IMG/VR virus record: IMGVR_UViG_3300028070_000001
Span: 1 to 54,435 of that record
Origin: a virus
Taxonomy: Duplodnaviria > Caudoviricetes
Length of the DNA stretch: 54,435 nucleotides
Strand: one strand, 5' to 3'
The notes beneath the pieces were generated by a model. That model had not been told where the DNA came from. It did no database searches and worked only from the letters and a program-made list of their open reading frames with translations. The position numbers and the translations under genes are program-made. The first letter of the stretch is position 1. Every line of letters begins with the position of its first letter. Positions 1-8,613 of this stretch are shown piece by piece.

Positions 1-94
1 CTCATTATCTCTCCAATCATCAGCCGCGCTTGAGTGTCGTGGTCACCCGTTATCGCGGTTCTGTCGGTCGTACATCCACATCAACGCCGATCTT

Positions 95-171
95 TGGATG
101 GGAAGGAAAGTCTCGAACTTTCTGCCTCTAGGTTCAGGGCCTAGCGTTCATACCTGTTGAACTTCTTCCCA
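95..171 (-). tRNA. trnQ: tRNA-Gln(CTG), atypical C33
   Basis: Cloverleaf TGGGAAG...CTTCCCA-T-CCA; anticodon arm CTAGG-CCCTGAA-CCTAG; T arm GAAAG-TTCGAGA-CTTTC; encoded CCA. Confidence 0.9.
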
Positions 172-179
172 ACTTAAAC

Positions 180-254
180 TGGCTGTGCAGGCGAGAGTCG
201 GACTCGCATCTTTTTGATTAACGATCAAAAGCATTACCGTTATGCTACCGCACA
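180..254 (-). tRNA. trnN: tRNA-Asn(GTT), atypical C33 and TCC T-loop
   Basis: TGTGCGG...CTGCACA-G-CCA; anticodon arm TTTGA-TCGTTAA-TCAAA; T arm GCGAG-TCCGACT-CTCGC. Confidence 0.88.
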
Positions 255-259
255 ATGCA

Positions 260-288
260 GAGGCCCCAAACTTTTGTCTGGGGCCTCA
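260..288 (-). terminator. Attenuator hairpin directly upstream of tRNA-Asn
   Basis: GAGGCCCCAGAC-AAAA-GTTTGGGGCCTC; U-tract weak (TGCATT); 5' arm complementary to GGGGCCTCA at 321-329. Confidence 0.6.
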
Positions 289-328
289 GTGTTTACTGCT
301 CTTATTATGGGGTAAGTCTTTGAGGCCC

Positions 329-400
329 CTATCCAGCACACGCATGATTACCGGCTGGTTGTGTCGGTGTCGTCGCTGCGGTCTGGAATCGGTTTCTCAT
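329..400 (-). CDS. Putative leader (attenuator) peptide MRNRFQTAATTPTQPAGNHACAG, 23 aa
   Basis: ATG at the predicted transcription start of a sigma70-like promoter; stop codon overlaps the antiterminator segment; below the ORF track cutoff. Confidence 0.65.
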   Translation of the reverse strand: MRNRFQTAATTPTQPAGNHACAG

Positions 401-407
401 GTTTTTC

Positions 408-436
408 ACTGTACCAACTTCTTTCGGTGTTGTCAA
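408..436 (-). promoter_or_regulatory. Sigma70-like promoter for leader peptide and Asn/Gln tRNA operon
   Basis: TTGACA-17 bp-TACAGT, 7 nt upstream of the ATG at 400. Confidence 0.75.
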
Positions 437-451
437 GAACTATTTTAAAAC

Positions 452-598
452 TTTGCGCGGTCCAGAACTGTCGTCCAGGATTTCTTCATCGTGACACTCC
501 GTAGACTTCCGGCCTAAGAAGATTGGCTACCGACTCTTCGCGTTTCTACGGGTCGCCCCGTCGATAGCTTTGCGTGTCCATCCACGCCGCCGCGCAAA
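452..598 (-). ncRNA. tRNA-like / Y-RNA-like structured RNA
   Basis: Closing stem TTTGCGCGG/CCGCGCAAA; D-arm-like GCGT-GGATGGAC-ACGC; internal stem CCGTAGA/TCTACGG; 3' hairpin just before the closing strand. Confidence 0.55.
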
Positions 599-599
599 C

Positions 600-740
600 T
601 CATAAACTTTGTACCCACAACAAGAATATCAGAATCGACAACCAGAACAGCTTCTTCAGAAACTTAATTACTAATCCTAGCGCGATCTCGGTTCTCGTTA
701 TAGGCATAATCTTTGGACCGGGCGTAAGGTTTAGCCTCAC
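600..740 (-). CDS. Small hydrophobic (membrane) protein, 46 aa
   Basis: GTG-start ORF ending LFWLSILIFLLWVQSL, co-oriented with the tRNAs. Confidence 0.35.
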   Translation of the reverse strand: MRLNLTPGPKIMPITRTEIALGLVIKFLKKLFWLSILIFLLWVQSL

Positions 741-796
741 TCTGCTTCCCCATAGGCTATCCATGGAATCCTATAGGTGCTTTCTACCCGGATACT

Positions 797-871
797 TGGT
801 AGCGAGTATGGAATTTGAATCCATGTACCAGCCTTGAAGGGGCCGTATCCTAACCACTAGATGAACTCGCC
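797..871 (-). tRNA. trnE: tRNA-Glu(TTC), atypical C33
   Basis: GGCGAGT...ACTCGCT-A-CCA; anticodon arm CGGCC-CCTTCAA-GGCTG; T loop TTCAAAT. Confidence 0.9.
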
Positions 872-878
872 ACAAACT

Positions 879-1148
879 CTACTTTGCCACAAAACCTTCT
901 TTTTTTGTCCAAATCGCAGGACCAATGTTGCTAGTCCTAATCGTGCTAGTATCAATTCCAGACTTCTCAACCAGTTCATCAAAGTCTTCCTTCGACATTG
1001 TGACCACTTCTTGAATCCCACATTTATCTACGCACTCGTGGTGTTTACGCAAGTCTCTTTCGGAAGCATAAATAGTGTTTCCACCCGATGCTTCTCCTAG
1101 TTCCCAATCGAAATCTACGGCGCACATCCATCCCGGTACTGCTCTCAT
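879..1148 (-). CDS. Hypothetical phage protein, 89 aa
   Basis: ORF with RBS CAGGAGAG, filling the gap between tRNA-Asp and tRNA-Glu. Confidence 0.7.
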   Translation of the reverse strand: MRAVPGWMCAVDFDWELGEASGGNTIYASERDLRKHHECVDKCGIQEVVTMSKEDFDELVEKSGIDTSTIRTSNIGPAIWTKKEGFVAK

Positions 1149-1166
1149 TTAACTCTCCTGTTATCA

Positions 1167-1240
1167 TGGCGGTGACGACGGAAATTGAATCCGCATCCAT
1201 TCCCGTGACAAGGGAAGACTTTACGTTAAGCTACGTCACC
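1167..1240 (-). tRNA. trnD: tRNA-Asp(GTC)
   Basis: GGTGACG...CGTCACC-G-CCA; anticodon arm TTCCC-TTGTCAC-GGGAA. Confidence 0.92.
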
Positions 1241-1248
1241 AAACTCTA

Positions 1249-2070
1249 GTGCTCCGTGCGGTGTTAGGAATTAGAACTAGGGACCGATTTTCCTAATTCA
1301 TCCTTCTCTTTTTTAAGAATTATCCATCGGACAGGATAATTCAAGAGCTTCCCATGCAACAGAGCACATATCGAACTTTGCCCTTTTCCCTCTCCGGGCC
1401 AGAGTTAAGGAGAAGTTACACGACTGAAAAACGAAGTATCATGTAACTACCGGGAACTTTTAGCAAGTCGTCCATACCGAGCATGGATCGTCCAAATAGC
1501 ATTTCTGCTTACCATCTCACCTTTGCTCCTCGGTAGACGGTATCTATCGACTTGCCAATTGCGCATCCGGGATACGTTATATCTGGTGATTTGCAACTCG
1601 CGTTTGTTGCTATCGTCCAGTATCCTAGCGTATAGCTCAAGTGGATTCAGCGTATCCCAGAAAACTTTTCATCGGGATAGGACTTTCACCTATCACTTTG
1701 TACCCTGCCGGAGCGCAGATTCATTCGTAGGTTTCCCATTTCTCCGCAACCATTTTGGTTTTCCAAAATAGATGATAAGAGTATCCCACTAGGCGTTCAT
1801 GTTCCGTCTTGCCGATGAAAACTGTGACCGTCTTTCCGGTCTGTCAGCCCTACTCGCGGGACCACGTTAGTGACCAAAATGCCGGTCGGATACAACCTAA
1901 TTGCATAGTGCAGGATTGGATACCTGCCGAGTGGTCGCCCGATTATTACATGGAACGGAGCCATGCCCCCACCACGCGTAATTGCTCCGCGTGAACTCAC
2001 GACTATGCAAACTCTGCGGGGATGGACCACTCCCAACCCCGATGCACCGATTCTATATGGTCGGTGGTTA
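1249..2070 (-). ncRNA. About 820-nt tract of tandem structured RNA modules
   Basis: Successive closing stems at 1249-1367 (GTGCTCTGT/ACGGAGCAC), 1414-1448, 1462-1556 (GCAAGTCG/CGACTTGC), 1567-1660 (CTGGGATACG/CGTATCCCGG), 1666-1821 (TTTTCATCGG/CCGATGAAAA) and 1901-2010 (TTGCATAGT/ACTATGCAA); no convincing ORF. Confidence 0.65.
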
Positions 2071-2073
2071 ATC

Positions 2074-2150
2074 TGGTTGCAGGCGCACGCTCCGACCGTG
2101 CCGATGTGTGCGTTATGAGCGCACCGAGACGCCTTTTCTCCATGCCTGCG
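2074..2150 (-). tRNA. tRNA-Met(CAT), initiator-like (C1:A72 mismatch), divergent T loop
   Basis: CGCAGGC...GCCTGCA-A-CCA; anticodon arm GTGCG-CTCATAA-CGCAC; T arm GCACG-GTCGGAG-CGTGC. Confidence 0.8.
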
Positions 2151-2156
2151 AATTAA

Positions 2157-2185
2157 ACAATAGCGCATTCCGATTTACTTGTCAA
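2157..2185 (-). promoter_or_regulatory. Sigma70-like promoter for the tRNA-Met/ncRNA/Asp/Glu transcript
   Basis: TTGACA-17 bp-TATTGT. Confidence 0.7.
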
Positions 2186-2198
2186 GATAAATCTGCGC

Positions 2199-2603
2199 TT
2201 ATTTGATGATTCCTTGTGAAAACGCCTTTCCTCTGTTTGGTTCGGGAGACAGGATATACTCTTTATCAAATACCCATTCCGCATCAGGATAGGAGCGCTC
2301 TAAAATACTGCAATGAGCATCGTCAAAAGACTTACGCATTATGTGCTTTACGGCTTTATTTTGCTCCTTATTAGGAATCGACGCATCTATTGTCCCTAGC
2401 ACAGAAGCAAGAAGAACACGCAAATTAGGTACAACTATTCCGTTGACTATTTTGTTAACAATTGGGAATGATTCCTTTGTGGTGAGAATATCGCTTGCGG
2501 ATTCGTCTTCAATCGTTTCATGGATAATTTTGGAAGTACCATCTTCAAATATTACGGTGTCTGGGCAAATTGTGGATGGTTGAAATGCTAGAGGTAAGCT
2601 CAT
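2199..2603 (-). CDS. Hypothetical protein (likely start MSLPL at 2603)
   Basis: ORF track 2199..2672; AAGGGAAACC precedes the ATG at 2603. Confidence 0.65.
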   Translation of the reverse strand: MSLPLAFQPSTICPDTVIFEDGTSKIIHETIEDESASDILTTKESFPIVNKIVNGIVVPNLRVLLASVLGTIDASIPNKEQNKAVKHIMRKSFDDAHCSILERSYPDAEWVFDKEYILSPEPNRGKAFSQGIIK

Positions 2604-2701
2604 GGTTTCCCTTTCAAAGTTTCCGGTTGCTTTACGTCTTGCCGGAACGACGGAATGAAAACAGTGTAGCACAGAACCGATTTGTGGTGTATATTTATCT
2701 T

Positions 2702-3121
2702 ATGAAACCACGCGATTTGAACGAAAACAACTGGGATGTGAATGTAGCGGTCTTTGAAGCACCCTGCTTCGATGCCCGCATAACGGCTGATGGAAAGAAA
2801 ATTTGGTTCCGCGTATCCATCGGACTGTGCTTCGCCGATATTACGATACCGATCTCTGATTTTCGGAAGTCTGTTGACTTCATCAGCAAGTTCGACGTAG
2901 CCACATTAAAACCTGACGGTAATTCCGCAGGAAGAACGTTAGGCTCCTATTACATAGATATATCAAATTCCATCGGGTCATTCAGGCAGGGAAAGATTAA
3001 ATATAGGAAAACACCCGCTGTCGTGCTGATTGCACCATACAGCCAGAAGCGCAACCACAGCATTGCTTTGCGACTCAGCCTGTTTAAGAAAATCGTTCGC
3101 TGGTACAACTCGGATATTTAG
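2702..3121 (+). CDS. Hypothetical protein, opposite in orientation to the tRNA operons
   Basis: ORF track 2570..3121; ATG at 2702 avoids overlap with the neighbour. Confidence 0.55.
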   Translation: MKPRDLNENNWDVNVAVFEAPCFDARITADGKKIWFRVSIGLCFADITIPISDFRKSVDFISKFDVATLKPDGNSAGRTLGSYYIDISNSIGSFRQGKIKYRKTPAVVLIAPYSQKRNHSIALRLSLFKKIVRWYNSDI

Positions 3122-3123
3122 AC

Positions 3124-3215
3124 TGGTGCGTCGGGAAGGATTTTAACCTCCGGTGTTCACCGCTCTGGGTATCCGCTCTACAGGCGGACGCATTCAAACG
3201 CTCTGCCACCGACGC
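3124..3215 (-). tRNA. trnY: tRNA-Tyr(GTA)
   Basis: Anticodon arm TCCGC-CTGTAGA-GCGGA; long variable arm; CCA end. Confidence 0.9.
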
Positions 3216-3221
3216 ACATCA

Positions 3222-3310
3222 TGGAGGAGAGCAAGGTATCGAAACCTAATGCCATCGCTGACATTCCACGGGTTTCAGGTCCGTTTGGCTAACCCTAGCC
3301 GGTACTCTCC
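3222..3310 (-). tRNA. trnS: tRNA-Ser(TGA), atypical C33
   Basis: Anticodon loop CCTGAAA in ACGGA/CCCGT stem; long variable arm; CCA end. Confidence 0.8.
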
Positions 3311-3316
3311 AAACTA

Positions 3317-3402
3317 TGGCGGATGGTTGAGAAATCGAATCCCCTTCCTTTCGGAAGCCTCCTGCTTTCGAGGCAGGCTGAGTACCTTACTCAGAACCAT
3401 CC
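3317..3402 (-). tRNA. trnS: tRNA-Ser(CGA)
   Basis: CCTGC-CTCGAAA-GCAGG; variable arm CTTCC-GAAA-GGAAG; GCCA end. Confidence 0.88.
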
Positions 3403-3407
3403 GTAAC

Positions 3408-3494
3408 TGGCGGGAAGCATACCAATCGAAGGCAACTCCTTGCGGAGCCAACGGTTTTCCAATCCGTGCCGTAGACCTCTACGGTTTACTTCCC
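3408..3494 (-). tRNA. trnS: tRNA-Ser(GGA)
   Basis: ACGGA-TTGGAAA-ACCGT; variable arm CTCC-GCAA-GGAG; GCCA end. Confidence 0.85.
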
Positions 3495-3499
3495 AAAAA

Positions 3500-3586
3500 T
3501 GGAGGAGAGCCAGTCGCACGATGACTATTCCCGCAGGAACCAATCGATTAGCAGTCGATGCCTACAACCTTATAGGTTGACTCTCC
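3500..3586 (-). tRNA. trnS: tRNA-Ser(GCT)
   Basis: ATCGA-CTGCTAA-TCGAT; long variable arm; divergent T loop ATCGTGC. Confidence 0.82.
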
Positions 3587-3593
3587 GTAAATC

Positions 3594-3680
3594 TGGTGCC
3601 GGTCGGGGGACTTGAACCCCCATACCAATTAAGGCGCTCCGCCTTGAACGGAGTGTGTCTGCGAATTCCACCAGACCGGC
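3594..3680 (-). tRNA. trnL: tRNA-Leu(CAA)
   Basis: CTCCG-TTCAAGG-CGGAG; T arm GGGGG-TTCAAGT-CCCCC; ACCA end. Confidence 0.92.
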
Positions 3681-3692
3681 AATACTAAACTA

Positions 3693-3783
3693 TGGTAGCC
3701 CCGGAGAGATTCGAACTCTCAATGTCGCTGTTCGCAACGCTGGTTCCTAAGGCCAGTGCCTGGACCAATCCGGCGTCGGGGCC
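3693..3783 (-). tRNA. trnL: tRNA-Leu(TAG)
   Basis: CTGGC-CTTAGGA-ACCAG; T arm GAGAG-TTCGAAT-CTCTC. Confidence 0.9.
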
Positions 3784-3796
3784 ACAACTTAAACTA

Positions 3797-3870
3797 TGGA
3801 GAGCACGGCCAGAATAGAACTGGCGTAAACGGATTTGCAGTCCGCTGCATAACCACTCTGCTACGCGCTC
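3797..3870 (-). tRNA. trnC: tRNA-Cys(GCA)
   Basis: GCGGA-CTGCAAA-TCCGT; U73 discriminator; CCA end. Confidence 0.93.
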
Positions 3871-3871
3871 A

Positions 3872-3960
3872 TGGTGCGGGAAGTCGGACTCTAACCGACA
3901 CGGGATTTAACTCCCAAAGGGGTTTAGGCCCTTCATGTCTAACAGTTCCATCATTCCCGC
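3872..3960 (-). tRNA. trnL: tRNA-Leu(TAA), atypical C33
   Basis: AAGGG-CCTAAAC-CCCTT; long variable arm; A73-CCA. Confidence 0.85.
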
Positions 3961-3995
3961 ACAAAACAAAAGCCCCTGAATCTCTTCAGAGGCTT
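3961..3995 (-). terminator. Intrinsic terminator (attenuator) immediately upstream of the Leu/Cys/Ser/Tyr tRNA cluster
   Basis: AAGCCTCTGAA-GAGA-TTCAGGGGCTT followed by TTGTTTTGT. Confidence 0.8.
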
Positions 3996-4022
3996 GTCGA
4001 ACGAATCTTTTTGAGACTCAGT

Positions 4023-4091
4023 TCAAACACGCCTCCAAATTGCCAATGACAGGCAATATGACGATAGCGATAAACTGAGAGTATTTTCCAT
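4023..4091 (-). CDS. Putative leader (attenuator) peptide MENTLSLSLSSYCLSLAIWRRV, 22 aa
   Basis: 12 consecutive Leu/Ser/Tyr/Cys codons; 3' end complementary to the terminator 5' arm; promoter just upstream. Confidence 0.75.
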   Translation of the reverse strand: MENTLSLSLSSYCLSLAIWRRV

Positions 4092-4100
4092 ATCAAAACC

Positions 4101-4129
4101 AGTGTTTCACGGATTCAAGATGTTGTCAA
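4101..4129 (-). promoter_or_regulatory. Sigma70-like promoter for leader peptide and tRNA cluster
   Basis: TTGACA-17 bp-AACACT (weak -10), 9 nt upstream of the ATG at 4091. Confidence 0.55.
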
Positions 4130-4132
4130 GTC

Positions 4133-4402
4133 CTATTGTGCAATGTTTTTCTGCGTCCACTTCGGGCGAAACGGTTCCCTGTTCTGCGGCTTACCATACA
4201 TGCCAATATACGGCCTTGCCACAAAACTGGTCGCATGTGTGTTGTGGGACTCAAAGCGCAGTCCCTTGACTGGTGTGCATCCTTGTCCTTCCCTCGCTCC
4301 ACATACGGGGCACCAAAGGGATAGACGACTCGTGCAATAGTGCGTTTGAATTTCAATTTCCACTGTTTTCCTCCTCAGTACGGCGAGGTGCAAGAACATC
4401 AT
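4133..4402 (-). CDS. Small zinc-finger-like protein (start uncertain)
   Basis: CPVCGAREGQGC...H motif. Confidence 0.45.
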   Translation of the reverse strand: MMFLHLAVLRRKTVEIEIQTHYCTSRLSLWCPVCGAREGQGCTPVKGLRFESHNTHATSFVARPYIGMYGKPQNREPFRPKWTQKNIAQ

Positions 4403-4550
4403 CGGTTACTATCTCGCCCTCCAACTCCTCGATTGCCTCTTGAATCTGTGCCTTGACTATCTGTGCAAAGACCGCTCCACCCTTTACTACGTTGTCGCAA
4501 TTGACCTCAGCACATCGAAGAATTTCTACTACTTTTTCCGTGTCAATCAT
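4353..4550 (-). CDS. Hypothetical protein
   Basis: ORF with AGGAGAG RBS in a tightly packed operon. Confidence 0.65.
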   Translation of the reverse strand: MIDTEKVVEILRCAEVNCDNVVKGGAVFAQIVKAQIQEAIEELEGEIVTDDVLAPRRTEEENSGN

Positions 4551-4559
4551 TCTCTCTCC

Positions 4560-4832
4560 TTAGTCTGGAAACTTCACTAAATCTGGATTCTCCTGTTGCC
4601 AATCGATAAATTTCTCTGCAAACTTCAGAATTTCATCCGATTGCTCGTACAGAGAATCAGCCAAATCAAATTCCTTGCGAATCAAAGCCTTATTGGCTTC
4701 CTTCTTCAATAGATGACTATAACCTGCAACAGCAGCAGGACTTAGTTTGTCCTGAGCGCGAATGAAAAACCATGGTTCGCCAGGATTCAGTTTTGACAAT
4801 GGGTTAACATCTGCGTACTTTGGAGTCTTCAT
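4560..4832 (-). CDS. Hypothetical phage protein (EPxFxxRAQD motif)
   Basis: ORF overlapping the upstream stop by ATGA. Confidence 0.75.
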   Translation of the reverse strand: MKTPKYADVNPLSKLNPGEPWFFIRAQDKLSPAAVAGYSHLLKKEANKALIRKEFDLADSLYEQSDEILKFAEKFIDWQQENPDLVKFPD

Positions 4833-5281
4833 TTCGTCCTCGCCTCAAGCATTGAATCTGCCCACTCGTAAGCGTGTTTGCACGTACCGCTCATTGACTC
4901 TGGTTTCTGCACCCAGAACTCATCGAACGAGTTCGAGAATAGACCCTGCATCGCCGCCATAGCGAACTGGTCGCGCAGTGTAGCGCGTGGCTCCATCGCC
5001 GTGAATATCGGTTGAGGTAAATCGTCAGAAAACCCCATCCGCTCGTTAGGACCAATATTTGAGGTGTCGTACATAAGCGGAGGATTGAGAACAACCTTCA
5101 GTTTCTCATTCAGTTCGGCCAACTGTGCGGCAACTTCGGCCAGCAGAGATAGTTTCACCGAATCAACTCCGAATCGGTGCTCCTTATCTGATTTTGTTTC
5201 GTTGATTTCCTTTTGGCAATCATGATTCAGTGATCTAATTTCTTCAGCGTTCATTTCTTCTCCCCTTCTTTCTCCCATCAA
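4829..5281 (-). CDS. Hypothetical phage protein with TLRDQFAMAAMQG motif
   Basis: C-terminal LRDxFAxxAMQG...AYxxADxML motif common in small phage early proteins. Confidence 0.75.
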   Translation of the reverse strand: MMGERRGEEMNAEEIRSLNHDCQKEINETKSDKEHRFGVDSVKLSLLAEVAAQLAELNEKLKVVLNPPLMYDTSNIGPNERMGFSDDLPQPIFTAMEPRATLRDQFAMAAMQGLFSNSFDEFWVQKPESMSGTCKHAYEWADSMLEARTK

Positions 5282-5685
5282 AATGGTATTCCGTCAGGAA
5301 ATTTCTCAAGTTCAAACCGCTTTACTTCCTCAGCGTAGTCGAAATCCGTCCACTTTTCCTCGTCCCACATATCTTTGTCCACAGCCATCTTAGCAGCCAA
5401 CATGCAGAGTGGGCAACCTTGCGCTAGTCTTCGGAGCGTGTCAATGTCTCCATACCAGCTTTCCGTATCTTCGTCTAGGTAGTAGCTAAGAGGATGCTGT
5501 GTCAAACCATGTTCCTTGCACTTTCCGCAAACGCGGTCAGGATTCTTCAGACAAAGAACCTCGTGATGCAGGCATTTCTTCTTCTCCCAAAATCCCTTGT
5601 TGCAATGGTCGCACAGATAGCGCAGTACATTCCTTGACTTCATCTTTTCTCTCCCATTCCCATGCCCAATCTTGCGTATCAACAA
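5278..5685 (-). CDS. Cys-rich (C2H2-like zinc-binding) hypothetical protein
   Basis: YLCDHCNKGF...HHEVLC, CGKC and CPLC motifs; likely start MKSRN near 5643. Confidence 0.65.
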   Translation of the reverse strand: MLIRKIGHGNGREKMKSRNVLRYLCDHCNKGFWEKKKCLHHEVLCLKNPDRVCGKCKEHGLTQHPLSYYLDEDTESWYGDIDTLRRLAQGCPLCMLAAKMAVDKDMWDEEKWTDFDYAEEVKRFELEKFPDGIPF

Positions 5686-5887
5686 TTAAAAACGGTGGTT
5701 TACCATGCCAGTACGGCGATGGCTTATCGGGATACTCTAATGCGTAGAATCCTGTCGCAACCTCCACTTTACCATCAACGGTGTGCAGCCAACTTCCATC
5801 AGGATACTCGGCGCTAGGCTTCATGACGCGATCTTCTACAGATACGTATCCCTGTCCTACGTCGATTCCTGCTGTGTAGCCGCTCAC
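5537..5887 (-). CDS. Hypothetical protein
   Basis: ORF track; overlaps the downstream gene. Confidence 0.45.
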   Translation of the reverse strand: MSGYTAGIDVGQGYVSVEDRVMKPSAEYPDGSWLHTVDGKVEVATGFYALEYPDKPSPYWHGKPPFLIVDTQDWAWEWERKDEVKECTALSVRPLQQGILGEEEMPASRGSLSEES

Positions 5888-6186
5888 TTCACCTTCTCCT
5901 CGTGTTTAAACTCAAACTTAAATCCGCATGTCTGGCAAGACGCATAGTATCCAACTGAGAATTCTCCATTATGGATACCTACACTATAATCCTCTCGTAG
6001 GGAGGAACAAAACGAATCGTCACTCGCTATAGACTTACGAAACGATATTGCCTGTTCTCTCAATTCATCAAAATTTTCAGCAGACACATTTCCGTAGGAC
6101 TCTGAAGCAAGTTTTTCCAGTTCTTCCGCTATCGCTTTGTTCCTTACGTAGCATTGAGGACATTGTGTCCATCTATCAGCGCTCAT
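5884..6186 (-). CDS. Zinc-ribbon hypothetical protein
   Basis: CPQC...CQTC motifs, RBS GGAGG. Confidence 0.75.
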   Translation of the reverse strand: MSADRWTQCPQCYVRNKAIAEELEKLASESYGNVSAENFDELREQAISFRKSIASDDSFCSSLREDYSVGIHNGEFSVGYYASCQTCGFKFEFKHEEKVK

Positions 6187-6490
6187 TGTTTTCCTCCTGT
6201 TCCTTTATCGAACCATCTTCGTTATCCTCTAGCACTCCTTGAATCACCACATCTTGAGAATCATCCATTATTAGAGGATGACCTCTGTGATTCCAGAGAA
6301 ACTGTTTGAGTTCTTCCATAGCCTCTTTCTCTCCCGAATAGAAGCAGAACGGAGGATCGCTATTCTGACTTTGCCCTACCCAAACATAACCTTTACAGCG
6401 GGAGCAAGCAAGATAATACGAATCGCTCATGGCTTCACAAACTCCCGTATCTCTTCCCAATCGTAGATAGGAGAAATCCATCCAAGACAA
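6176..6490 (-). CDS. Hypothetical protein (CxxC...H)
   Basis: ORF track; likely start MSDSYY near 6430. Confidence 0.6.
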   Translation of the reverse strand: MSWMDFSYLRLGRDTGVCEAMSDSYYLACSRCKGYVWVGQSQNSDPPFCFYSGEKEAMEELKQFLWNHRGHPLIMDDSQDVVIQGVLEDNEDGSIKEQEENNER

Positions 6491-6572
6491 GCGATATTTC
6501 CATCCTTGTCTGATTCCAAGATAGGACTAAGTTCTGGATGATTTTCAAGATCATGTTTTATGCTAGATTCGC

Positions 6573-6881
6573 TCATTGTTTTACCAACTCTTCAAACTTA
6601 TCAATGTCTACCACTCGCACAGCTTGAGCATCTACTACTTCGCAAGGAACCATGAAGTCCTGTTTCCAAATCCCGCTATTACGACGTTTAACAATGTTAT
6701 GTGCGTCCTCTTCTGAGTACCTGCCAGCAAACTCAAGAGTAGTAGAATAACCCGATTGGTTCGCTGCCCAAAAGAGGCATACTCCACGCGGCCACATTGC
6801 CTCGTGCGCTTTGGTGAGAATATAATATTGTTGTGGATCAGAAATCTTTCTCCCCTTTAATGCTTTCTCTAGGATTAGCAT
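6573..6881 (-). CDS. Hypothetical phage protein (FWxxNxxGYxTxLxxAGRY motif)
   Basis: Motif typical of small phage early proteins. Confidence 0.7.
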   Translation of the reverse strand: MLILEKALKGRKISDPQQYYILTKAHEAMWPRGVCLFWAANQSGYSTTLEFAGRYSEEDAHNIVKRRNSGIWKQDFMVPCEVVDAQAVRVVDIDKFEELVKQ

Positions 6882-7233
6882 CGTTTAGAAAACGGACAAA
6901 CTCGTAGTTCGTCCATATCTCATCCATAGACAGATAATGATGCTGATTCCAACCCCAATCTGGTTTGTATTCAATCTCTGAATACGTTCTCCCCATTACT
7001 TTAAGTGGATTGGTATCTATCCACATAGCTTCGGATATGCGCTTTACTATTGCCGGAGTCGATATTCCTCCGCAAGTTTGGCATACTCTTTGTTCGCCAT
7101 ACTTGTCTACCGTGATTGAATCAAAAGTGTTCTGGACATGATGCTCTGGACACGCGAATCCAAAGCAATATCCGACAATATCTTTTGGCTTTGTAGCAAT
7201 GTCTGGCTCTGGTTGCACTTGTTTATCGCTCAT
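6838..7233 (-). CDS. Hypothetical protein with CxxxH/CxxC
   Basis: ORF overlapping the HTH gene stop (ATGA). Confidence 0.65.
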   Translation of the reverse strand: MSDKQVQPEPDIATKPKDIVGYCFGFACPEHHVQNTFDSITVDKYGEQRVCQTCGGISTPAIVKRISEAMWIDTNPLKVMGRTYSEIEYKPDWGWNQHHYLSMDEIWTNYEFVRFLNDANPRESIKGEKDF

Positions 7234-7448
7234 TTCTTTTCCTTTGTGAACGTGTACGTTACCGTCAAAGTCTTTTCACGGTTTAGCCCAAAGTGTTCGT
7301 AAATCTTCCTGCCAGGAGCACGGTTTCCCCGCAGCACATCGGAAAGGTAAGCTGCTGAAATACCAACGCTCTTCGCGTAGTCGCGCAAGGACGATCTTCC
7401 TTGCTCTTTGCGGATTAGATCGATTACCTGCTGTTTATCTAAAATCAT
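7230..7448 (-). CDS. XRE/Cro-like helix-turn-helix regulator
   Basis: SLRDYAKSVGISAAYLSDVLRGNRAPG; start MILDK at 7448. Confidence 0.85.
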   Translation of the reverse strand: MILDKQQVIDLIRKEQGRSSLRDYAKSVGISAAYLSDVLRGNRAPGRKIYEHFGLNREKTLTVTYTFTKEKK

Positions 7449-7458
7449 AATGGAAATA

Positions 7459-7559
7459 AGCCTATAACGAATCGGCATCATTGTCAACAGGTTTTTTCGT
7501 ACATACGCTAAATTTTTCTTACGTACGCTCTTGACAGCGTTTGCTATGCGGTGTACAGT
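7459..7559. promoter_or_regulatory. Divergent sigma70-like promoter pair
   Basis: Minus: TTGACA(7487-7482)-17-TAGGCT; plus: TTGACA(7531-7536)-17-TACAGT. Confidence 0.7.
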
Positions 7560-7594
7560 TTTGGAATACGGAATAATGAAAGAGGAATCAGGAA

Positions 7595-7816
7595 TTGAAA
7601 CTGCAATCAGAACCACAAGGTAAACAGTTGTCTTGGAATGAGCTTTTATCGCTTTCTACGGGGGCTCTCGTTCGTGATTTTGAGGGAGAGACAGGAACGG
7701 TGGCTGAAACCACCTTCAAGGGAAGGATCGTAAGGCGTATCGAGTGGGACGATGGGTGTGTCACGTCAATGAGTGGACAGTTTCGGTCTGTAACTGGAGT
7801 CTGGATAGTCGTTTGA
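7595..7816 (+). CDS. Hypothetical protein (small beta-rich)
   Basis: ORF downstream of the plus-strand promoter. Confidence 0.55.
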   Translation: MKLQSEPQGKQLSWNELLSLSTGALVRDFEGETGTVAETTFKGRIVRRIEWDDGCVTSMSGQFRSVTGVWIVV

Positions 7817-7857
7817 TGTTCATCCTTACTCTCTAAATTTTATGCTTGCAATGATGC

Positions 7858-8613
7858 TTGCATTGTGCTACCGTGTACTTGCATAGGGGAGAAGAAATCA
7901 ATATGACAGTTGAAAGTAAAAGAGGGGCAAACGGCGGTGATGCTCGTGCCAAAAAGTTGTCAAAGGAAGAGCGTAAGACAATCGCAAGCACAGCCGCAAG
8001 AGCAAGATGGGCAAAGAAAAAAGCTGAGAATAATCCTGTCGAAACCACAATTTCATACGTCAACACGAAAACAGGAGAGGTAACAGACGCATCTACTATA
8101 ATTGATGCCGAATATCCCGAAGTTGACGAAGTTCCAGTGGCTTCCCCCGCACCTGTGGCGCAAGCAATAGTACCTGTTATTCCTAATGCGCCTAAGCCAG
8201 ATAAGCGTACTACCAAACGCAGGGCACGTTTACCTAAGGAATTTGGAGCAGCACACTCCTACGCGGAAAAAAGGCTGGCTGATGCAATCAAAGAACGCGC
8301 GGAGGCTATGGGAAAAGTCAATATGCTGAATGCTGAGATTCCTTCCTTAGTCCAGATCATTAAGGCGCTCAAAACAACAGAGAGTCCTATCCCATCATTT
8401 AATAATCCGCAAGCATACCAGACGCTTCCTATGCCTATCGCGGTAGGAATAAATACTACGACGCAAGCAGTAAACATTATTCCGCAAGCAGAAGTTATTC
8501 CTCCTGCGCCGATAGCCAACGGTGGAGCAATAGATTTTGATCCATCGCAACAGGATATGCCTGAAGACGCCTTTTTGAGAGGTGCGGCTGGTGGAGATAG
8601 GGGTTGGATTTGA
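7858..8613 (+). CDS. Hypothetical protein with basic GGxARAKKLSxEERKxIAxxAAxARW motif (putative DNA-binding)
   Basis: Motif recognised; likely start MTVES at 7903. Confidence 0.7.
   Translation: MHCATVYLHRGEEINMTVESKRGANGGDARAKKLSKEERKTIASTAARARWAKKKAENNPVETTISYVNTKTGEVTDASTIIDAEYPEVDEVPVASPAPVAQAIVPVIPNAPKPDKRTTKRRARLPKEFGAAHSYAEKRLADAIKERAEAMGKVNMLNAEIPSLVQIIKALKTTESPIPSFNNPQAYQTLPMPIAVGINTTTQAVNIIPQAEVIPPAPIANGGAIDFDPSQQDMPEDAFLRGAAGGDRGWI

Follow-up and report, generated by a model that had tools for sequence, protein, structure and literature searches.

The stretch of DNA analysed here, referred to as the window, comprises 54,435 nucleotides of a Caudoviricetes record in IMG/VR (IMGVR_UViG_3300028070_000001), which is estimated to be 51% complete. 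On its minus strand two blocks of tRNA genes are each preceded by a promoter-like sequence, a short open reading frame (ORF) and a hairpin. These upstream regions, leader 1 and leader 2, are two of three such modules, the third of which is seen in related phages. They are considered here as candidate attenuators, in which a translating ribosome would decide whether the tRNA genes are transcribed.

Leader 1 and the first tRNA block

Leader 1 lies at 4129-3961 (Table 1). An earlier note on this DNA had described a promoter, a 22-codon ORF and a terminator with a U-tail followed by tRNA genes, and the same layout was read in the present analysis. The promoter block CTTGACAAC-N6-AATCCGTGAAA is unchanged in two related loci, L002 and L003, while the relatives L016 and G003 share its layout. 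The ATG of the leader is only 9 nt past the -10 element and has no Shine-Dalgarno sequence. Because of this proximity, the message is predicted to be leaderless or nearly so.

Codons 5-16 of the ORF, the sensor run, are CTC AGT TTA TCG CTA TCG TCA TAT TGC CTG TCA TTG, exactly as the note had listed them. All of them specify Leu, Ser, Tyr or Cys, and there are 10 distinct codons. Under strict wobble rules the run is cognate to eight of the nine anticodons of the tRNA block behind it, which agrees with the number originally given; none of its codons is read by the GGA anticodon and CTC has no strict reader. The 12-codon run is the longest of its kind across the six frames of the 54-kb window, the runner-up having nine codons. 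A chance origin was considered and rejected; runs of at least 12 such codons arise in 4 of 200 block shuffles.

The RNA between the AUG and the U-tract folds with a z-score of -3.46, and none of 200 shuffled sequences folds equally well. The hairpin at its end has 11 pairs, is followed by TTTTGTTTTG and is the top terminator-like site on the minus strand. The last codons and the stop codon form one strand of a predicted antiterminator helix, the other strand of which includes 8-9 of the 10 nt of the terminator 5' arm. An Rfam cmscan of window positions 1-6000, with E up to 1, gave tRNA-type matches only, and neither a T-box nor any other family.

The note had counted nine tRNAs in the block. 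All four Ser-like stretches do fold, each alone, as five-arm cloverleaves with the anticodons GCT, GGA, CGA and TGA and an odd D arm, but ARAGORN calls only five of the nine genes with default settings and seven with relaxed settings, and Rfam calls none of the four Ser tRNAs. The Ser-like genes (window 3222-3586, minus strand; L002 4230-4600) have an encoded CCA and a long variable arm. Their D arm consists of 5-7 pairs with a loop of 3-4 nt that lacks the usual GG, and their anticodon stems, compared by reading, show compensatory changes between the window and L002.

Table 1. Positions of leader modules, tRNA genes and associated elements in the window
Feature	Positions	Strand	Description
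Promoter P1	4101-4129	-	-35 TTGACA 4129-4124, 17-nt spacer, extended -10 TG-a-AACACT 4109-4101; predicted by reading
Leader 1 ORF	4023-4091	-	22 codons and stop, MENTLSLSLSSYCLSLAIWRRV; ATG at 4091, stop 4025-4023
Sensor run	4044-4079	-	Leader 1 codons 5-16
Region 1	4071-4079	-	CUCAGUUUA; pairs with stop-codon region in untranslated RNA (minimum-free-energy structures)
Antiterminator helix (regions 2:3), predicted	3985-4039	-	5' strand 4039-4021, last codons and stop
Intrinsic terminator, predicted	3961-3995	-	Stem 3995-3970, U-tract 3970-3961; abuts tRNA 5' end
tRNA block 1	3124-3960	-	Nine tRNAs directly 3' of leader 1 U-tract
tRNA-Leu TAA	3872-3960	-	Block 1, first tRNA, starts at 3960
tRNA-Cys GCA	3797-3870	-	Block 1
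tRNA-Leu TAG	3693-3783	-	Block 1
tRNA-Leu CAA	3594-3680	-	Block 1
tRNA-Ser GCT-like	3500-3586	-	Block 1
tRNA-Ser GGA-like	3408-3494	-	Block 1
tRNA-Ser CGA	3317-3402	-	Block 1
tRNA-Ser TGA	3222-3310	-	Block 1
tRNA-Tyr GTA	3124-3215	-	Block 1
Plain promoter	2157-2185	-	TTGACA-17-TATTGT, directly before tRNA-Met, no leader
tRNA-Met	2074-2150	-	Behind plain promoter
tRNA-Asp	1167-1240	-	3' of tRNA-Met
tRNA-Glu	797-871	-	3' of tRNA-Asp
Promoter P2	408-436	-	TTGACA 436-431, 17 nt, TG-g-TACAGT 416-408; scan 10/12 matches, TG present
Leader 2 ORF	329-400	-	23 codons and stop, MRNRFQTAATTPTQPAGNHACAG; ATG at 400, 7 nt past -10
Leader 2 switch, predicted	260-329	-	Post-stop 329-321 pairs with 5' arm 287-276 of hairpin 287-260
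tRNA block 2, start	95-254	-	Continues in L013, G002 and G003
tRNA-Asn GTT	180-254	-	First tRNA of block 2
tRNA-Gln CTG	95-171	-	Block 2; window ends here

Three leaders and the tRNA blocks behind them

Relatives of the region were reached by several routes. L002 and L003 were found via an upstream gene of 89 amino acids, and L013-L016 via a neighbouring protein of 121 amino acids in metagenomes (at least four loci). Whole records are L017 (G002) and L018 (G001); the array of L013 was read as far as 10978. A scan with RtcB gave 80 loci, of which only L020 (G003, 88.6 kb and 91% complete) and L031 (G004) have comparable arrays, and the remaining loci were the source of control tRNA clusters. 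A tblastn search with RtcB led to Tunturi 5, a cultured phage of Tunturiibacter whose RtcB is 73.7% identical. Near and distant BLAST searches of the region against cultured phages found no relative at the DNA level, only a 53-56-nt match to tRNA-Cys, and an IMG/VR pattern scan with the start of tRNA-Leu gave no match. Other pattern scans returned L004 (the sole match of one scan) and L012 (one of three stretches, two of them known), both unrelated, and L005, L006, L007, L009 and L011 (from a scan with seven stretches, two of them known relatives), which are chance matches in coding DNA.

Leader 1 exists in six distinct versions, those of the window, L002/L015/L017, L003/L013/L014, L016, G003 and Tunturi 5, and their Leu/Ser/Tyr/Cys runs comprise 12, 12, 13 of 14, 13, 10 and 15 residues, respectively. 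Conservation of the ORF in relatives had been set beforehand as a test, and the ORF is kept in all six of these diverged versions. Each has an ATG-started ORF of 21-32 codons, a hairpin with a U-tract, and a Leu tRNA directly after it. Insertions and deletions in the ORF are multiples of three; the order of Leu and Ser is scrambled among the versions and the amino-acid class is kept. A CTCAGTT block is invariant in the alignment (A1). In the terminator, seven of ten pairs show compensatory double changes among the six versions, only one cell of the pair-by-version comparison is broken, and the U-tract is conserved.

The choice among synonymous codons is diverse. Summed over seven runs (the six versions and the ORF of G004, described below), the distinct Leu/Ser codons number 62, where 48.6 are expected and none of 5000 simulations reaches 62, and in G002 all 12 codons of the leader 1 run are different. 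L002 has an additional gene between the upstream gene and its equivalent of P1, which indicates that the module belongs to the tRNAs and travels with them. Two small proteins are 100% identical between window 4353-4832 and L003 2571-3047 and the adjacent gene is 69% identical, while the leaders clearly differ, which points to a recent mosaic exchange beside the module.

G004 (L100 7780-7863, minus strand; RtcB 62% identical) has TAGACA-17-TACTGT, six bases and then an ATG, which opens a Leu/Ser/Cys-rich ORF of 28 codons with Trp-Tyr at its end. The ORF stops 18 nt before a series of Ser, Tyr, four Leu, Trp, Cys and Ser tRNAs, and a second tRNA block of G004 also has an ORF in front. As a seventh member of the leader 1 set it was put aside, having neither a terminator nor a structure signal.

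Leader 2 repeats the arrangement of leader 1 at 436-255 of the window. CTTGACAAC is present here too, at 437-429, and the start of P2, CTTGACAA, recurs in L013, G002 and G003. Versions of leader 2 occur in these three relatives and in Tunturi 5; the ORFs MMTTRFQHANPTAATTPQGNRARKTGSQ, MMTTRHFAATPTANQPQGRNCATGEGSQTDL and MMNRAHTGQPTTPQAFGNPV are rich in the residues served by block 2, which in the relatives runs on past Asn with Gln, Gln, Gly, Thr, Thr, His, Ala, Phe, Pro and Arg. The leader 2 hairpin of the window is followed by UGCAU rather than by a U-tract. Leader 3 is located directly after RtcB in G002 and G003, where its ORFs are MQTSTKRGITRMTTKRVIWGVV and MQIRTKHVITRMTGKRVIWGVVF, and block 3 behind it carries Trp, Met, Ile, Lys, Lys, Arg, Arg, Val, Thr, Ile and Gly tRNAs. 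Tunturi 5 has all three leaders: leader 3 is the annotated hypothetical ORF308 and the other two are unannotated.

Every module has an ATG-started ORF of 20-49 codons between the promoter and the tRNAs. The ATG is 6-9 nt past the -10 element in the five leader 1 versions whose sigma-70-type promoter is recognisable, in the four versions of leader 2 and in leader 3 of G002. Leader 3 of G003 differs in having a 20-nt leader with GGTGGG; leader 2, like leader 1, has no Shine-Dalgarno sequence. A further TTGACA is found 1-20 nt before tRNA-Trp, past the leader 3 terminator (L017 3015-3030 in G002, L020 4855-4870 in G003, L101 17045-17060 in Tunturi 5); it is too near to serve that tRNA as a promoter.

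The match between leaders and blocks was counted under strict wobble rules, with a background from long ORFs (Table 2). In the three genomes that have all three leaders, the tables of codons by blocks are diagonal, with chi-square p = 1e-8 (G002), 3e-7 (G003) and 2.8e-9 (Tunturi 5). The anticodons of Tunturi 5 are those of default ARAGORN, with Asn GTT added by reading. When ATG-started ORFs 18-50 codons long were taken from each genome's own DNA, the values of leaders 1, 2 and 3 of G002 were reached by 7, 1 and 0 of 316, in a run from which three non-canonical Ser tRNAs were left out, weakening the leader 1 value; the numbers for Tunturi 5 are 2, 0 and 1 of 182. As a negative control, seven tRNA clusters from unrelated RtcB-encoding phage contigs were analysed, and their best upstream ORFs had P values of 0.013-0.87.

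Table 2. Leader codons decodable by the tRNAs of each block
Leader	Block 1	Block 2	Block 3
G002 leader 1	11/21	5/21	4/21
G002 leader 2	3/30	20/30	4/30
G002 leader 3	1/21	2/21	16/21
G003 leader 1	8/20	3/20	3/20
G003 leader 2	0/19	12/19	4/19
G003 leader 3	0/22	3/22	14/22
Tunturi 5 leader 1	14/31	4/31	9/31
Tunturi 5 leader 2	2/36	24/36	9/36
Tunturi 5 leader 3	4/48	9/48	29/48
L013 leader 1 (two leaders)	11/23	4/23	
L013 leader 2	1/27	19/27	

Thr, Gly and Arg are served by both block 2 and block 3. For these amino acids, block-2-type codons stand at 12:5 in leader 2 and at 1:17 in leader 3 (p 8e-5); for Thr alone the ratios are 7:2 and 0:8 (p 0.002). The match therefore holds at the level of the tRNA, beyond that of the amino acid. 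The note had suggested testing whether leader codons co-vary with tRNA content, and for Asp and Glu they do. In Tunturi 5, which has both in block 3, eight of the 48 residues of leader 3 are Asp or Glu, whereas in G002 and G003, with neither tRNA in block 3, the count is 0 of 43 (p 0.006).

Alternative pairings and the proposed attenuation

The leaders were folded in silico (ViennaRNA) with the ribosome footprint masked codon by codon, both at equilibrium and as transcripts cut before the terminator 3' arm. For leaders 2 and 3 of G002, leader 2 of G003 and leader 3 of Tunturi 5, the structures of truncated transcripts were used instead of the equilibrium rows where another hairpin had been scored. 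In untranslated leader 1 RNA, the stop-codon region is paired with region 1, the opening part of the sensor run, and the terminator is formed as well. The equilibrium probability of the terminator drops from about 0.97 to 0.1-0.3 only when the A site is in the sensor run, at codons 7-14 in L002, 6-14 in L003 and 6-8 in G003, and in all three it is back at about 0.97 when the ribosome is at the stop codon. In truncated transcripts with the ribosome in the run, an antiterminator of -25 to -35 kcal/mol forms in all four leader 1 versions that were folded. That of the window, at -25 to -31 kcal/mol, forms while the ribosome occupies codons 6-14 and is lost when it is at the stop codon; the helix contains the pairing of 4035-4021 with 4002-3989 that the note had pointed out. 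With the ribosome at the stop codon the antiterminator is impossible in leader 1 of the window, L002 and L003, and likewise in leader 2 of the window and L013 and in leader 3 of G002.

Truncated transcripts of most copies of leaders 2 and 3 also form an antiterminator. In the window's leader 2, the arm has 8 of 12 nucleotides paired at all tested ribosome positions except the stop codon, where the number is 3 of 12, and in L013 8-11 of 14 are paired against 3 of 14 with the ribosome at the stop. Leader 2 of G002 keeps its helix as long as the ribosome has not passed codon 20 and lacks it with the ribosome at codons 24-32. In Tunturi 5, the equilibrium terminator probability of leader 2 is at most 0.26 at most of codons 19-27 and 0.98-1.0 at codons 28-37. 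Leader 3 of G002 has 5-9 of 9 arm nucleotides paired, compared with 0 of 9 when the ribosome is at the stop. The 5' strand of the antiterminator is at, or just past, the stop codon in leader 2 of the window, L013, G002 and Tunturi 5 and in leader 3 of G002. With this strand at the stop codon, a ribosome that has finished would permit termination and a stalled one would prevent it.

It is quite likely that each phage tRNA block is preceded by a ribosome-mediated transcription attenuator, and that phage tRNAs are produced only when the ribosomes face a shortage of them. The trp/his-type attenuator with codons matching the downstream tRNAs, as originally proposed for leader 1, gains support from its conservation, from two further matched leaders and from the pairings found in silico. 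Transcription would start at, or a few bases ahead of, the AUG of the leader ORF. The codons in the middle of the ORF would be those read by the tRNAs encoded just downstream, with several amino acids represented and roughly one codon for almost every isoacceptor. As long as these charged tRNAs are abundant, the ribosome would reach the end of the ORF and cover the stop-codon strand, whereupon the terminator hairpin and U-tract would form before the first tRNA and transcription would end. Should any of the polled tRNAs be scarce, the ribosome would stall in the sensor run and leave the stop-codon strand free to pair with the 5' arm of the terminator, and RNA polymerase would enter the tRNA genes. 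RNase P would later remove the leader. The outcome would be a self-addressed negative feedback that provides each tRNA block on demand. What the analysis shows is the layout of the modules, their conservation, the fit of codons to tRNAs and, in silico, the alternative pairings; translation of the leader ORFs, termination in vivo, the scarcity of tRNAs as the signal and the cause of their depletion are what we infer from these data. Amino-acid starvation, anticodon nucleases or codon demand may be what triggers the switch.

Several observations weigh against this mechanism. P1 is absent from the list of a consensus promoter scan, because its -10 element matches in only three of six positions. 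The promoters are predictions, and the scan of positions 1-8000 lists 11 promoter-like sites where 10.4 are expected and 5 terminator-like sites where 7.2 are expected, so that neither kind is in excess. No matching tRNA was found for CTC in genomes lacking Leu-GAG, for TCC in L016, or for the Arg and Met codons of leader 3 in G003, and two Ser anticodons of the window and three of G002 were assigned by reading and not by a tRNA caller. The leader versions share ancestry and hence are not independent, and the leader ORFs were chosen by eye ahead of testing. The ORF region of G004 has no terminator and a folding z-score of +0.20. Folding with and without ribosome masking, which the note had suggested, gave a divided answer for the window: the truncated transcript of leader 1 switches, but at equilibrium its terminator is favoured at every ribosome position, as is that of L016, with minima of 0.71 and 0.63, respectively, so that the switch in these two would depend on the order of folding. 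The terminators of leader 2 hold a probability of at least 0.9 at equilibrium in the window, L013, G002 and G003. The leader 2 hairpins are very stable, and those of the window and G002 are without a good U-tract; the U-tract of G003 and Tunturi 5 is good. Leader 3 of G003 and leaders 1 and 3 of Tunturi 5 give no clear picture with the ribosome at the stop. In several copies the outcome would have to be settled by kinetics and not by equilibrium.

Some of these points agree with another explanation, namely that translation of the leader regulates the tRNA genes without an intrinsic terminator switch, by way of Rho access, processing by RNase E or RNase P, or the stability of the precursor, or that the hairpins are processing or pause signals. 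The leader 2 hairpins of the window and G002, which have no U-tract and whose terminator probability never falls at equilibrium, would be accounted for in this way, as would the matched ORF of G004 with no terminator at all and leader 3 of Tunturi 5, which has two tandem hairpins and no clear logic. We regard this explanation as unlikely, given that all six versions of leader 1 have a canonical hairpin and U-tract with compensatory changes and that in most modules the stop codon is on the antiterminator strand.

It is very improbable that the ORFs are untranslated and the region is conserved as RNA structure only, be it a pause, processing or terminator element, with the codon match as a by-product. 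The missing Shine-Dalgarno sequences and the CTCAGTT block, which doubles as the pairing partner in region 1, would suit such an element, but indels in multiples of three would not, nor would a residue class that is kept despite a scrambled nucleotide order. Three leaders of three compositions, each fitting its own block down to the isoacceptor, also argue for translation, and so does the ATG at a fixed 6-9 nt past the -10 element in 9 of the 10 modules whose sigma-70-type promoter is recognisable, as in the known leaderless leader peptides in the accessible part of PMC4007540. That the ORFs encode functional small proteins such as membrane peptides, between ordinary gene boundaries and with a coincidental tRNA match, is scarcely credible in spite of the annotation of ORF308 and the mild hydrophobicity of leader 1: composition is conserved and residue order is not, substitutions stay within Leu/Ser/Tyr/Cys and do not extend to hydrophobic residues generally, and the coincidence would be needed for three ORFs in three genomes, with no such match in the control clusters from unrelated phages.

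The surroundings of the attenuator candidates contain other features. Within the tRNA array of G002 (L017 3201-6047, minus strand) there are genes for RtcB (Pfam 9e-71) and for a TROVE+VWA (Ro60-like) protein, which fit a setting of tRNA damage and repair, as context only. Just upstream of these two genes ARAGORN reports a 67-nt 'tRNA-Ser(ACT)', possibly a Y RNA's tRNA-like portion. ORFs resembling HNH homing endonucleases were noticed by eye between block 1 tRNAs in L003 (about 3559-4080) and L016 (about 2970-3400), and HNH genes are annotated within the array of Tunturi 5. In the window and G003, the Met, Asp and Glu tRNAs are located behind a plain promoter and have no leader ORF. Several hundred bases past tRNA-Met are conserved, with long identical blocks (window about 1260-2073, minus strand; L013 6830-7440; L017 9990-10400). 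Neither a convincing ORF nor an Rfam match (E up to 1) is found in this stretch, which is possibly an unknown structured RNA. In G002 (L017 10481-10673, minus strand) the plain tRNA-Met promoter is followed by an extra 190 nt, absent from the window and G003, that hold a 26-codon ORF at the leaderless position and a long-range stem. The window proteins matched almost nothing in PHROGs and Pfam, so the phage cannot be classified by those libraries. Its host is probably a member of the Acidobacteriota, judging solely from the likeness to Tunturi 5 in RtcB sequence, tRNA order and leaders.

Implications and comparison with known systems

Phage tRNA genes are usually seen as constitutive extras whose role is to patch codon usage or to make good the tRNAs that host defences destroy. 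T5 and mycobacteriophage tRNAs reportedly act against anticodon nucleases. If the proposed mechanism is true, the phage would gauge the decoding capacity of its host isoacceptor by isoacceptor and top up only the tRNAs that are missing. Leader-peptide attenuation would extend from enzymes to tRNA genes, leaderless translation would serve tight coupling, and the leaders would represent a natural multi-codon sensor, with a readable code that links leader codons to a tRNA set. The arrangement also points to an easy genome-wide test that could be applied to other tRNA-rich phages, and to parts for synthetic sensors of tRNA availability. The idea is directly testable, since the three leaders are available in a virus and host that are both in culture, Tunturi 5 and Tunturiibacter psychrotolerans. 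We incline to the wider view that this is the first leader-peptide attenuation of tRNA genes: a modular homeostat of tRNA supply in which a 'barcode' leader for each sub-operon polls just the tRNAs encoded behind it, at about one codon per isoacceptor and on a leaderless message, which would sense the exhaustion of particular host tRNAs or their cleavage by anticodon nucleases and make up for no others, and which is common to unrelated-looking Acidobacteria phages including the jumbo phage Tunturi 5.

The note knew of no description of such regulation for phage tRNA operons, and our full-text literature search likewise found no paper in which tRNA genes are preceded by a leader peptide or an attenuator; most subscription journals and supplements are outside its coverage, and absence from print is unproven. 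In the accessible part of a broad survey of attenuators (PMC2965389) the terms 'tRNA gene' and 'tRNA operon' occur 0 times, and the text at hand of the Tunturi 5 paper (PMC11924767) lists 43 tRNAs and contains neither 'leader' nor 'attenuat'.

The closest known systems are the leader-peptide attenuators of amino-acid biosynthetic operons in Proteobacteria (trp, his, leu, thr, ilv, pheA), as far as they are covered by the available parts of PMC4007540, PMC1183508 and PMC3082878. Like the trp, his and leu leaders, the phage modules have a short ORF with regulatory codons and predicted alternative 1:2, 2:3 and 3:4 pairings; the stop codon is on the predicted antiterminator strand, and a hairpin and U-tract precede the regulated genes. 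The regulated genes encode tRNAs and not enzymes. The phage sensors poll 4 to about 10 amino acids, nearly every isoacceptor once and with maximal synonymous diversity, whereas the leaders of amino-acid operons repeat one codon. The thr and ilv leaders sense several amino acids. Further differences are the start, which in the phage is leaderless by its position, and the presence of several differently coded modules per genome.

Leaderless leader peptides are described for Deinococcus deserti, where they precede aminoacyl-tRNA synthetase genes as well as genes of biosynthesis, and transcription starts at the AUG or 1 nt before it (PMC4007540, in the part available). They likewise govern a component of the translation apparatus, but contain the codons of one amino acid and stand before cellular protein genes, whereas the phage leaders have mixed codons and stand before phage tRNA genes. 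T-box riboswitches also monitor the status of tRNA and operate an antiterminator/terminator switch before genes that supply translation. A T-box, however, binds the tRNA directly via a specifier codon and needs no ribosome, and there is no T-box match in window 1-6000. Large tRNA sets are shared with the phage arrays that are discussed, in the accessible text of PMC11924767, as devices of codon usage or counter-defence; here they occur with RtcB and a Ro-like protein. Such accounts, as far as their text is available, treat the tRNAs as simply expressed, whereas here leaders are proposed to govern them. Relative to the trp, his and leu leaders, the new elements are tRNA genes as the product, a sensor of mixed codons in which each isoacceptor has about one, the leaderless start and several differently coded modules per genome.

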